Assembly (NCBI GenBank): GCA_039621445.1
Contig: CP154954.1
Span: 6,049,693-6,113,692, forward strand
Direction: 5' to 3'
Source: Euglena gracilis
Taxonomy: Eukaryota
DNA: 64,000 nucleotides
The notes beneath the pieces were generated by a model that made no database searches, was not told where the DNA came from, and saw only the letters and a program-made list of their open reading frames with translations. Of this stretch, positions 1,719 through 4,700 are shown one piece after another. The position numbers and the translations under genes are program-made. How positions within the stretch are numbered: position 1 is the first letter of the stretch; each line of letters opens with the position of its first letter.

Positions 1719-4700
1719 CTGGGGCATGCCCATCCCGCCAGGCTGCACGCTGTTGGCCCCAAGACGGAGTGCATGGGAAGATCTGGTGGGGGAGACGGTG
1801 GACTCTGCCACCAGGGGGGGGGGTCCAGAAAAAAAACGCAAAAATACAGGTTTTTTGCCCAAAAAAAAATCGGGAAAAAAAACGCGCCAAACACAAAAAT
1901 GAACGCGCCAAAAAAAGGCATTCATCGGGGTCCATTCAAAAACCAAAGCTCAGGGGGCAAGAAGAGTCAGGCGGGACAAACAGATGGTCCACCGCACCGG
2001 GGGTGGAAAACGGTGGTTTCTGGGGCGATGTTGAGACGCCCTTTTAATAAATGCAACAAAGCCGGCGGGGGGGGGGGGTACCAAAGGAGCACCACACCAT
2101 TCCATTCCCTGGTTCAAGGTTTGGGAAACGTCTCCCAAGCGATACCTAGCAACACGTTCCCAACCCGCGGTTTGGCTGAAGATCTGTAGGGGGGTCAGGA
2201 CGTTCAGGCCGGGTTGCGGACGACGGGGGGTCGTGGGACCTGGGGGGGACGACGGTGGGTGGCGGGCGGATGACGTCCCTTGGCTGCCGACCGAAGCAAC
2301 GCTAATCATCCGGGAAGATGTACCACAACAGCGGAGGACCGCGTGCCCTTTGAAGCCCGGCAAAGAATTCATCCTCGGAGGATCCAGCGCGATCCCTGTG
2401 TCCGGCACAGCACAACCGGGGGAGGGCCAATCCACCCAGGGACACAAGGGGGGGGGGACCCTCTCTTAAAGGGTAAAAAACCCCCTTTAGGCAGGGGCAA
2501 GCACCTATAGTTGACCCCCAGATTTTTGCCATTTTCGGCCATTTTCGGCCATTTTCGGCCATATAGGTGGGGGGTAAAGCTGCCTTAAAACTCTTTCATA
2601 CCAACAATGCATTTTGATCATTCAGTCAACATGCAAGCAGTCGTGACAAGCTAACGCATCCAAGGAGGTCCTTTGGAATGGGTGCTCAGGGATTAAAGCA
2701 GGGTTCGATATAAGGACAGGTGGGGGGGGGTCCGGGACCCCCCCCCCCTGCGGGCCGGGGGGTGGGGGGACACCCCCACCTAAACAGTGGCGCAGTCTGG
2801 GTGACCGATTTTCAGCCCGGCGCAAAGCGCCGGGCCAAAAGTTTGACATCCAGCGAAATCAAAGCGCAAGCAGCACATAAACAAAGGAAGCTGGCGAGAC
2901 ATCGGCTGCAAAAGAACAAGCAAATAAACGTGCAGTGCAGGAGCCGAAAGAAAACATTTGGCTGTTGCAACAAAAAAAAAATACCAAAAACTCCGCCGGA
3001 GGAAAAAATTGCCCTTTTGGGGGGTCCTGGGTACCCCCCCCCGGGTCGGTCCCGACCCCCCTGGCAGGTGAGAGGGGGGGGGGGGTGGTCCAGACCCCCC
3101 TGCGGGTCGGGGGGGGGGGGGCACCCCCCACCTAAACCATGTACGTCCTCCTTATATCGAACCCTGGATTAAAGAGGTCAAAGAGCTTTTTGTTGCAATA
3201 TGCAAACGCAAGGTTTTGGGAATAGGCTTCTTTTTTCTTGCCAGAGAGGCTCTTGTCCACTTTGGTCTTTTTTGCTGGGGGTTCTTGGGACGCTTCATGA
3301 GAGTGGTTGGCACATGACATGTTAACCACAATGGTGGGTGGCAACACCAAAACTGGTGCTTTTCTCTTCAAGCCTCTTGGCGTGGATGCTTTTCACAAAC
3401 AACTTCCCCTCACCTATTCCAACTTGATACCTCAAGCAACATTGTTTGATGGTGGCACTGTTAGATCCCATCCACTTGTGTGCAATGAACCTAATGCAGG
3501 AATCACACCTTTAACAGAGAAAAAAACACCTCGCATACTTACTTTGCCGGTTGCACCTTGTCACCACAATTTTCTGAAATGCCATCAAAACCATCAGCTT
3601 TGGCCCAAATACCCCATTCGGAGGTGGTTCTTTGAGCAGCATGTGTTCCACAGTCAGGCATAATGGCAGGACAAGAGAGGCATGACTTCAAAGAAGCCTT
3701 GATGTAAAATTTCATCCGTCGTGTTGAGACGATCGTCCGTCTAGATGTGGCGAAATTGGGAAAAAGTGCGCTCAGCTTGAGCGGCAGAACAAAAAAGCAA
3801 ACATGTGATCGGCCCATAATGTTGAAATACTTCACTTATATCACTGCATCTTCTCCAGCATCTGCATCTTGTCCAATGTCTGCAACTTGTCCAGCATCTG
3901 CATCTTGTCCAGCATCTACATCTTGTCCAGCATCTGCATCTTGTGCAGCATCTGCGTCTTGTCCAGTGTCTACATCTTGTCCAATATCTGCATCTTGTTC
4001 AGCATCTGCATCTTGTACAGCATCTGCATCTTGTCCAGTGTCTGCATCTTGTTCAGCATCTGCATCCATTGCATCTTGTCCAGTATCTGCAAACACTGCA
4101 TCCACTGGCTCCCAACCTAGCAAAATGACCACAGAAACCCCAAAAAGACCACAAAAAGCCTAAAATTGACCGCAAAAGGCCCCAAAAAGCAACCAAAATG
4201 ACCTAAAATGGCTTCAAATAACCTAAACTTGCCCAAAAACGCCAACAATGTCCACAAAAAAAATGTGAAAAATTACCCAAAATCACTAAAATGGCGCAAA
4301 ACGACCAAAAATGCCATAAAATGTGCTTATATTGACCCAAATTAGTTCAATGTTTGCCAAATCAGTGCAAAATATCCCCAAAATTAGCAAAAATTGATCC
4401 AAATTGGCCAAGATGGGTGTAATACTGGAGATTTGTGGAGAAATTATCCCAAAAATGGGTTTAATTCTTCAAAATATACAAAAAAAATGCCAGCATCACC
4501 CTTGTCACCAAAATTTTCTGAAATGCCATCAAAACATTCAGCTTTGGCCCAAATAACCCTTTCGGGGGTGGTTCATTGAGCAGCATGTGTTGCAGGGCCA
4601 GGCATAATAACAAAAGAAGAGAGGCTGCACAGAGACAAGCATCAGTCACACTGAAAATTGCCCCTCAGGGAAAAAGAAACTGTCAGGCAAAAAAAAAACT

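Follow-up and report, generated by a model that had tools for sequence, protein, structure and literature searches.

A transposon family in Euglena gracilis whose ends and eight-base target duplications match the splicing code of non-conventional introns: a testable lead, not a demonstrated introner system

The origin and the removal mechanism of the non-conventional introns of euglenids have been debated since the 1990s. In 2014 Milanowski et al. proposed, from the inverted repeats of these introns, an origin from elements like MITEs (miniature transposable elements with inverted repeats), at a time when no euglenid transposable element was known (PMC3935182). The proposal has been repeated in PMC4770533, PMC6221363, PMC11170887, PMC12621601 and PMC12501133, and a 2024 review (PMC11282704) labelled the CAG/CTG triplets of the introns as terminal inverted repeats ("TIR") and the repeats at their junctions as target site duplications ("TSD"), naming no superfamily or length in its available text. 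Here we describe an actual MITE family, present as two copies (MITE1 and MITE2) in 64,000 nucleotides of the Euglena gracilis genome (assembly GCA_039621445.1, contig CP154954.1, positions 6,049,693 to 6,113,692 of the forward strand; this whole stretch is the window, within which positions are counted), and compare its geometry with that of the introns of two genes in the window. The papers on a MITE origin describe introns with the same CAG/CTG outer triplets, terminal helix and TSD-like junction repeats, and they are explicit about a MITE origin; as far as their available text goes they name no transposon family, superfamily or duplication length, whereas here a family with an 8-bp TSD and CAG ends was found, and the spacer sum of the introns can be equated with its TSD length. 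The first-pass annotation of the window had proposed this equation as the basis of a candidate introner system and was right to regard a transposon origin as suggested before, since it has been in print since 2014 (PMC3935182).

The splicing code against which the family was measured comes from knock-ins in E. gracilis (Nomura et al., PNAS 2025, PMC12501133; this and the other euglenid papers are cited from the available parts of their texts). It reads N3-CDG...CH'G-N5-6 and then a purine, where D and H' are complementary bases, and in these experiments it was both necessary and sufficient for splicing of the non-conventional type. CAG at +4..+6 and CTG at -8..-6 form the outer triplets, there must be a terminal helix, and pairing after the CAG is needed; the 5' spacer is strictly 3 nt, and the 3' spacer is 5 nt with one further base tolerated. 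A C at exon +1 abolishes splicing, the CTG-CAG form is also functional, and five fully artificial 50-bp introns that followed the code were spliced from a foreign exon site. The register that the first-pass annotation had given as known in euglenids is therefore an experimentally defined requirement and not only a consensus (PMC12501133). In Euglena agilis, non-conventional introns account for 71.8% of introns, the code fits 61.2% of the non-conventional ones, and junction repeats occur in 84.4% of introns (PMC12501133). In a single strain of E. agilis (ACOI 323), gapC has newly acquired an intron (intron 4) with eight-nucleotide junction repeats, which the authors of that study read as the outcome of double-strand-break repair (PMC4770533, 2016). 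The equation of the 3+5 spacer sum with the 8-bp TSD of a hAT-type element was not found in print, in a search that left subscription-only papers and supplements outside, and the word hAT is absent from the available text of the four euglenid-intron papers checked.

Outside the euglenids, the systems to compare are the introners of Micromonas and Aureococcus and the Ds element of maize. According to Huff, Zilberman and Roy in 2016, these introners reportedly have 3-nt TSDs, use spliceosomal GT/GC-AG sites and form multi-gene intron families. Maize Ds, a hAT element, was reportedly found by Giroux et al. in 1994 to be spliced out of transcripts; it resembles the situation considered here as a non-autonomous hAT-type element within a gene that is removed from RNA, and differs in that its removal reportedly uses cryptic spliceosomal sites and is imprecise, so that the pre-insertion sequence is not restored by design. 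The introners of Micromonas and Aureococcus are, like the MITEs described here, non-autonomous DNA transposons with TIRs and TSDs, and their RNA-level removal takes the element and one TSD copy, so that insertions into exons are tolerated (PMC11282704). The E. gracilis family differs from them in its 8-bp TSD and in the candidate machinery, which would be helix-dependent and non-GT-AG, and no multi-gene intron family was seen in the window.

The two copies and their ends are as follows.

2699-3166: MITE1, 468 bp, with perfect 18-bp TIRs, G/C-rich subterminal palindromes and a variable middle.
2691-2698 (left) and 3167-3174 (right): TSD of MITE1, GATTAAAG, perfect over 8 bp.
2699-2716, with the reverse complement at 3149-3166: TIR of MITE1, CAGGGTTCGATATAAGGA, 18 of 18 positions paired.
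61067-61494 (61059-61502 with both TSDs): MITE2, 428 bp.
61059-61066 and 61495-61502: TSD of MITE2, AGGGACCC, perfect over 8 bp.
61067-61084 and 61477-61494: TIR of MITE2, with the same ends as MITE1, pairing reaching 19 of 19.

Both copies open with CAG and close with CTG. The geometry reported earlier (CAG/CTG ends, perfect 18-bp TIRs, exact 8-bp TSDs) was thus borne out, with pairing in MITE2 extending to 19 bp, and only the spans first given need harmonizing, as 2691-3174 takes in both TSDs and 61067-61494 is the bare element. MITE1 and MITE2 could be aligned for about 150-160 nt from their left ends and for 170-180 nt from their right ends, around a variable middle; their homology ended precisely at the tips of the TIRs, and the flanks were unrelated. 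The TIR pattern at up to 3 mismatches had six matches in the window against 0.03 expected, a number reached in none of 100 shuffles. The window has 14,111 perfect inverted-repeat pairs 8 nt or longer, of which 16 were flanked by a perfect direct repeat of 8 bp (0.22 expected); 12 of these fell in AT or CA simple repeats, and the other four were MITE1, MITE2 and two further pairs, at 2498-4777 and 34882-35491. The copies also have the general features of MITEs, being under 1 kb, non-coding and bounded by TIRs and flanking duplications, with more than one copy in unrelated surroundings. Pfam gave no match in the open reading frames (ORFs) of either copy, and the 152-aa open frame that spans MITE1 gave no relatives when used as a protein query, which is uninformative. 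Together, these data indicated that MITE1 and MITE2 are two insertions of one short, non-coding, cut-and-paste transposon family that makes 8-bp TSDs; the transposase that moves it must be encoded elsewhere. Matches to the TIR 18-mer at eight metagenome loci, one match each, were rejected as members of the family because blastn found only an 18-20-mer in common.

Measured against the code, the element plus one TSD reads N3-CAG...CTG-N5 in both copies and on both strands, and for MITE1 the first base of the downstream exon would be A on both strands. MITE1 thus agrees with every published item of the code in both orientations, and MITE2 departs from it in the purine rule only. In the strand transcribed here, the minimum-energy and centroid structures predicted for the MITE RNA closed on the TIR helix, starting at the C of CAG (z-score -6.8), and none of 100 shuffles folded equally well. 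Excision in silico at -3/+5 yielded the empty-site sequence exactly, for both copies and both strands. The arithmetic put forward earlier, that 3+5=8 and that removal in this register takes the element with one TSD, is therefore correct for these elements.

Whether elements that combine 8-bp TSDs with CAG ends have served as a source of non-conventional introns in euglenids is in our view an even call. Whichever way such an element were transcribed, its inverted ends would form a long helix with CAG/CUG as the outermost triplets, leaving 3 bases of one TSD on the 5' side of the helix and 5 bases of the other TSD on its 3' side. A cut at these points would remove the element with exactly one TSD and give back the pre-insertion sequence, and the TSD length would have left its mark as the 3+5 spacer rule. 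If inserted into an exon with a purine at position 6 of the target, a copy would be excised precisely through the non-conventional pathway, and so would be tolerated. With later decay the ends would shrink to a short CAG/CTG stem, and the TSD halves within the intron would leave partial repeats at the junctions. Such insertions may have shaped the machinery, or spread in genes may have been open only to elements of this geometry; the data fit either. More tentatively, and in our estimate somewhat short of an even chance, non-conventional splicing as such may be a precise RNA-level excision matched to transposons of this kind, its strict 3-nt and 5-nt spacers being the two halves of the TSD and such MITEs being live introners whose insertions into exons show no phenotype when TSD position 6 is a purine.

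The introns available for comparison belong to two genes on the reverse strand.

30799 to about 1479, - strand: gene for the catalytic subunit of Rab3 GTPase-activating protein (Rab3GAP), at least 23 exons, with 9 GT/GC-AG and 13 non-conventional introns defined.
60241-54870, - strand: MAPEG-family gene, 6 exons, all 5 introns non-conventional.
1703-4884, - strand: last Rab3GAP intron (i22), 3,182 nt, non-GT-AG, which holds MITE1 and the larger element around it; defined from RNA contig pieces, exon lengths and frames.

Altogether 27 introns were defined, of which 9 were GT-AG or GC-AG in an allowed register and 18 were non-conventional (13 in Rab3GAP, 5 in MAPEG); the count omits at least two more introns of Rab3GAP, located around residues 80-109 and 175-199 of guide protein P0002. 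The Rab3GAP gene was mapped with P0002 (868 aa, about 80% identity) and with a spliced RNA contig of 1,314 nt that aligns in pieces to 1479-1702, 6592-6751, 10975-11147 and 12877-13037, and its junctions were rebuilt from the contig pieces, exon lengths and guide proteins. RNA and DNA reads were examined over 1-13100, where high-copy repeats and a false joint (4833->7254, described below) dominated the joints listed. The MAPEG gene was defined by the 143-aa protein P0019, identical to it throughout except at residue 3. About 6-7 of the 18 non-conventional junctions depend on the roughly 80% identical guide only, and any error there would be a multiple of 3 nt. The junction of the conventional intron i14 was moved 3 nt from its guide-based position, as inferred from a mismatch-free RNA piece that ends at 13037.

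As junction repeats let intron boundaries slide, the invariant used in comparing introns was the number of intron bases outside the terminal helix, summed over both sides. Helices that scored at least 6 and left exactly 8 bases outside were present in 4 of the 18 non-conventional introns, as against 3 of 306 cross-paired ends (Fisher p = 2e-4), and were absent from all 9 conventional introns. The 3+5 geometry is thus real and enriched in the non-conventional introns of the window. Four introns followed the strict code, each with a purine at exon +1.

27139-30718, - strand: Rab3GAP i01, strict code, stem CAGACCTTG/CAAGGCCTG, junction guided by homology.
16169-16911, - strand: Rab3GAP i11a, strict code, stem CAGGCCCCGG/CCGGGGTCTG, junction guided by homology.
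7180-10537, - strand: Rab3GAP i18, code in the CTG...CAG form, perfect 9-bp stem CTGACCCCC/GGGGGTCAG.
54935-55603, - strand: MAPEG intron 5, strict code ACT-CAG...CTG-CCCGC|A, stem CAGGCTGTG/CACTGCCTG, flank 8-mers matching at 5 of 8 positions.

The last of these was the example given in the first-pass annotation, and the 100% identical protein P0019 bears it out; its boundary, 55603..54935, is one of five equivalent registers. Three more introns (i15 of Rab3GAP, m2 and m4 of MAPEG) had a weak stem in the 3+5 register. In i13 (14026-14603, - strand) and m1 (59481-60180, - strand) strong helices of 10-13 nt started one pair further in, so that a G.A or A.G mismatch replaces the C-G pair and 10 bases rather than 8 lie outside; the junctions of m1 also carry a repeat of 5 nt, TCCTG.

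The seven introns in the 3+5 register were used to compare the 8 bases before the stem with the 8 bases after it. The matches were 4, 4, 4, 5, 4, 5 and 3, or 29 of 56 positions; the earlier hand count had been 28 of 56, and the values for single introns partly differ. When left flanks were paired with the right flanks of other introns, the level was 2.71 of 8 (34%), and a total of 29 was not attained in any of 7,342 derangements. With the register moved by 1-4 bases there were 12-21 matches, against 29 in register, and the four strong-stem introns alone gave 17 of 32. The first-pass annotation had called for this comparison between non-conventional and GT-AG introns genome-wide; within the window, the conventional introns matched at 40 of 72 positions, a level explained by their shared consensus since cross-pairing them already gave 4.26 of 8 (53%).

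Several observations weigh against a transposon origin of these introns as we have set it out. Neither MITE interrupts an exon: MITE1 lies within the Rab3GAP intron 4884..1703 and MITE2 about 830 nt upstream of the MAPEG start codon, whereas a functional intron would interrupt an exon and be absent from the mRNA. The 476-nt RNA junction predicted for MITE excision was absent among the matches listed, and the sole RNA read across MITE1 had the same form as DNA contigs rather than that of the 476-nt excision. MITE2 has C where a purine is needed, on both strands. None of the 27 defined introns in the two genes was homologous to the MITE at its termini, and MITE-like matches within introns were nested relics or G/C-rich motifs. 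The strict code, N3-CDG...CHG-N5/6 and a purine, fitted only 4 of the 18 non-conventional introns in any allowed register, and with three weak stems, two frayed ones and nine introns that do not fit, the earlier statement that most non-GT-AG introns of the window lie in the 3/5 register did not hold. Three of the misfits, i22 (1703-4884), i21 (4983-5462) and m3 (56205-58395), all on the - strand, had no detectable terminal helix, and their junctions are backed by the RNA contig or a 100% identical protein. In another, i17 (10608-10975, - strand), which starts with GT, the helix ran from the first base to one base before the end, over 12 positions with one mismatch and one G-T pair, and so recalls the 'intermediate' intron type of the literature. 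In the flank comparison, three of the seven stems were weak and were chosen with the register known, and the matches peaked at the two positions on either side of the cut, where 5 and 6 of the 7 introns agreed, compared with 2-4 of the 7 at each remaining position, as would also be expected from a local preference at the cleavage site. The other two elements in the window with 8-bp TSDs (2498-4777 and 34882-35491) end in CAAG... and TAGC..., and therefore do not fit the splicing code. Finally, no transposase was found in the window among its 300 ORFs with a length of 89 aa or more, and the hAT dimerisation domain PF05699 was likewise absent from them, so the search for an autonomous partner urged by the first-pass annotation found none here. 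A MITE need not adjoin its autonomous partner. With no intron copy of the family in the window, neither copy exonic and RNA excision nowhere observed, the data do not demonstrate an introner system, and the first-pass proposal stands at present as a candidate only.

The absence of the family from the 27 introns, the four strict fits among 18, the non-CDG ends of the other 8-bp-TSD elements and the clustering of junction matches beside the cut would all be expected if two geometries merely coincide, that is, if the MITE is an ordinary 8-bp-TSD element with the CAG ends typical of its superfamily, the 3+5 rule reflects a splicing enzyme measuring from the helix, and the family was never an intron. 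The 3' spacer of 6 nt that the code tolerates (PMC12501133) points the same way, since it would not restore an 8-bp TSD. An RNase III-like explanation of the 3/5 offset was also considered and set aside. We hold such a coincidence of geometries to be rather unlikely. Two independent features would have to agree, the outer triplets, CDG/CHG, and the spacers, which sum to exactly 8. The newly gained E. agilis intron has a junction repeat of just this length (PMC4770533), and junction repeats are as frequent in that species as noted above (PMC12501133). In the window itself, the flank identity was specific to the intron and exceeded what a shared consensus gave (29 of 56 against a cross-paired 34%).

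The superfamily of the MITE is a separate question, on which hAT is our best guess. The terminal motif of hAT elements is YARNG, their target consensus is nTnnnnAn, and their ends typically start with CAG. The TIR of the MITE opens with CAGGG, in agreement with this motif; with regard to the target consensus, GATTAAAG has the A at position 7 and lacks the T at position 2, and AGGGACCC has neither. An 8-bp TSD and short TIRs of 5-27 bp are hallmarks of hAT elements (PMC4316626), and both intact copies have an 8-bp TSD, with TIRs of 18 and 19 bp. Since the assignment comes from TSD and TIR length only and the defining transposase is not in the window, membership is unproven and we term the element hAT-like: what stands of the earlier label is a genuine non-autonomous TIR transposon with an 8-bp TSD, and the hAT part of it does not yet. 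Another transposase that makes 8-bp TSDs, such as that of Merlin, might instead move the MITE, which would change the label and leave the intron arithmetic as it is. In support of this, the only DNA transposons found documented for E. gracilis are two Merlin families with 8-bp TSDs (PMC8101967, in its available text), a literature search for Euglena, hAT and transposase brought up that paper only, and no hAT domain was found in the ORFs of the window. Merlin elements share with the MITE the species and the 8-bp TSD (8 or 9 bp across the superfamily); their TIRs, however, all start with 5'-GG and are at least 24 bp long, whereas those of the MITE start with CAG and span 18-19 bp (PMC8101967). 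The TIR and TSD lengths agree with the hAT description (PMC4316626), and we regard a superfamily other than hAT as unlikely.

It is very unlikely that double-strand-break repair with microhomology made both the junction repeats and the new introns, with the MITE unrelated to either: this is the authors' own reading of the 8-nt gapC repeat (PMC4770533), and conventional introns in the window show junction repeats too, but such repair predicts neither a fixed repeat length nor terminal inverted repeats, the code-fitting introns of the window have TIR-like stems of 9-11 nt, and the repeats of the conventional introns are accounted for by their consensus.

We return to 8-bp-TSD, CAG-end elements as a source of non-conventional introns, an idea that gains weight from the published knock-in experiments and the printed 8-nt repeat and that we regard as a good lead: a specific, cheaply testable sharpening of a ten-year-old hypothesis, with no introner system demonstrated. 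The MITE hypothesis has had no named transposon, and a real family that matches both the code triplets and the TSD length makes it concretely testable. The link to the TSD would also account for a 3+5 spacer rule that otherwise looks arbitrary. Should the idea hold, this would be the first introner-like system using non-GT-AG, helix-guided splicing, and matched excision would explain the share of non-conventional introns in Euglena, about 70%.

MITE1 is nested inside a larger element, and related or similar sequences occur elsewhere in the window.

2498-4777: host element of MITE1, 2,280 bp, TIR CAAGCACCTA(T/C)AGT with 13 of 14 positions paired, 8-bp TSD GGCAGGGG at 2490-2497 and 4778-4785.
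24100-24290, + strand: decayed, one-ended related copy, TIR CAGGGTTCAATACAAGGA with 2 mismatches, within the conventional Rab3GAP intron i04.
60093-60110, - strand: TIR-like relic (3 mismatches) within MAPEG intron 1, with subterminal motifs like those of the MITE after it.

The host element also carries a tandem array of 12 18-bp units (3844-4066), and no coding matches were found in it. The summed depth of DNA contigs over 2186-4807 was about 10^3 times the single-copy level, a figure that is not a copy number. In one DNA run, two contigs with a joint 2694->3180 represented a paralogous, MITE-free form of the host element, whose site differs by a 9-nt indel; a single RNA read with the same joint was rejected as RNA excision, as it has the form of the paralogue's DNA contigs. 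The pair at 34882-35491 spans 610 bp; its inverted end, TAGCATTG, is 8 bp long, and the repeat that flanks it, GTACCATG, is perfect over 8 bp. Either a further small element or a chance pair (0.22 expected among 14,111) could account for it, and it was not counted as established. Mostly-G RNA and DNA reads anchored at 4816-4833 and 7254-7275, producing an apparent joint 4833->7254, which was rejected as splicing since it is carried by these poly-G reads and resembles a sequencing artefact.

Within the Rab3GAP gene, the frame followed by P0002 shifts by one base at about 22882 on the - strand, between ...ECSKL and GLQRLFS, which could be an assembly indel, an allele or a very short intron. Intron i18 contains a 163-bp tandem repeat of 5.8 copies (8577-9509) with very high summed read depth, and the conventional intron i14 contains a (CGTG)89 array (13113-13468). 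Rfam and transfer RNA scans of the window found nothing. Retroelement remains occupy 43818-53525 on the + strand, where three ORFs had reverse-transcriptase matches. Adjoining a reverse-transcriptase ORF, the ORF at 46589-47242 had a weak, sub-threshold match to a Dam-type adenine methyltransferase; a preprint of 2026 reportedly describes retrotransposons with such methyltransferases and mentions E. gracilis.

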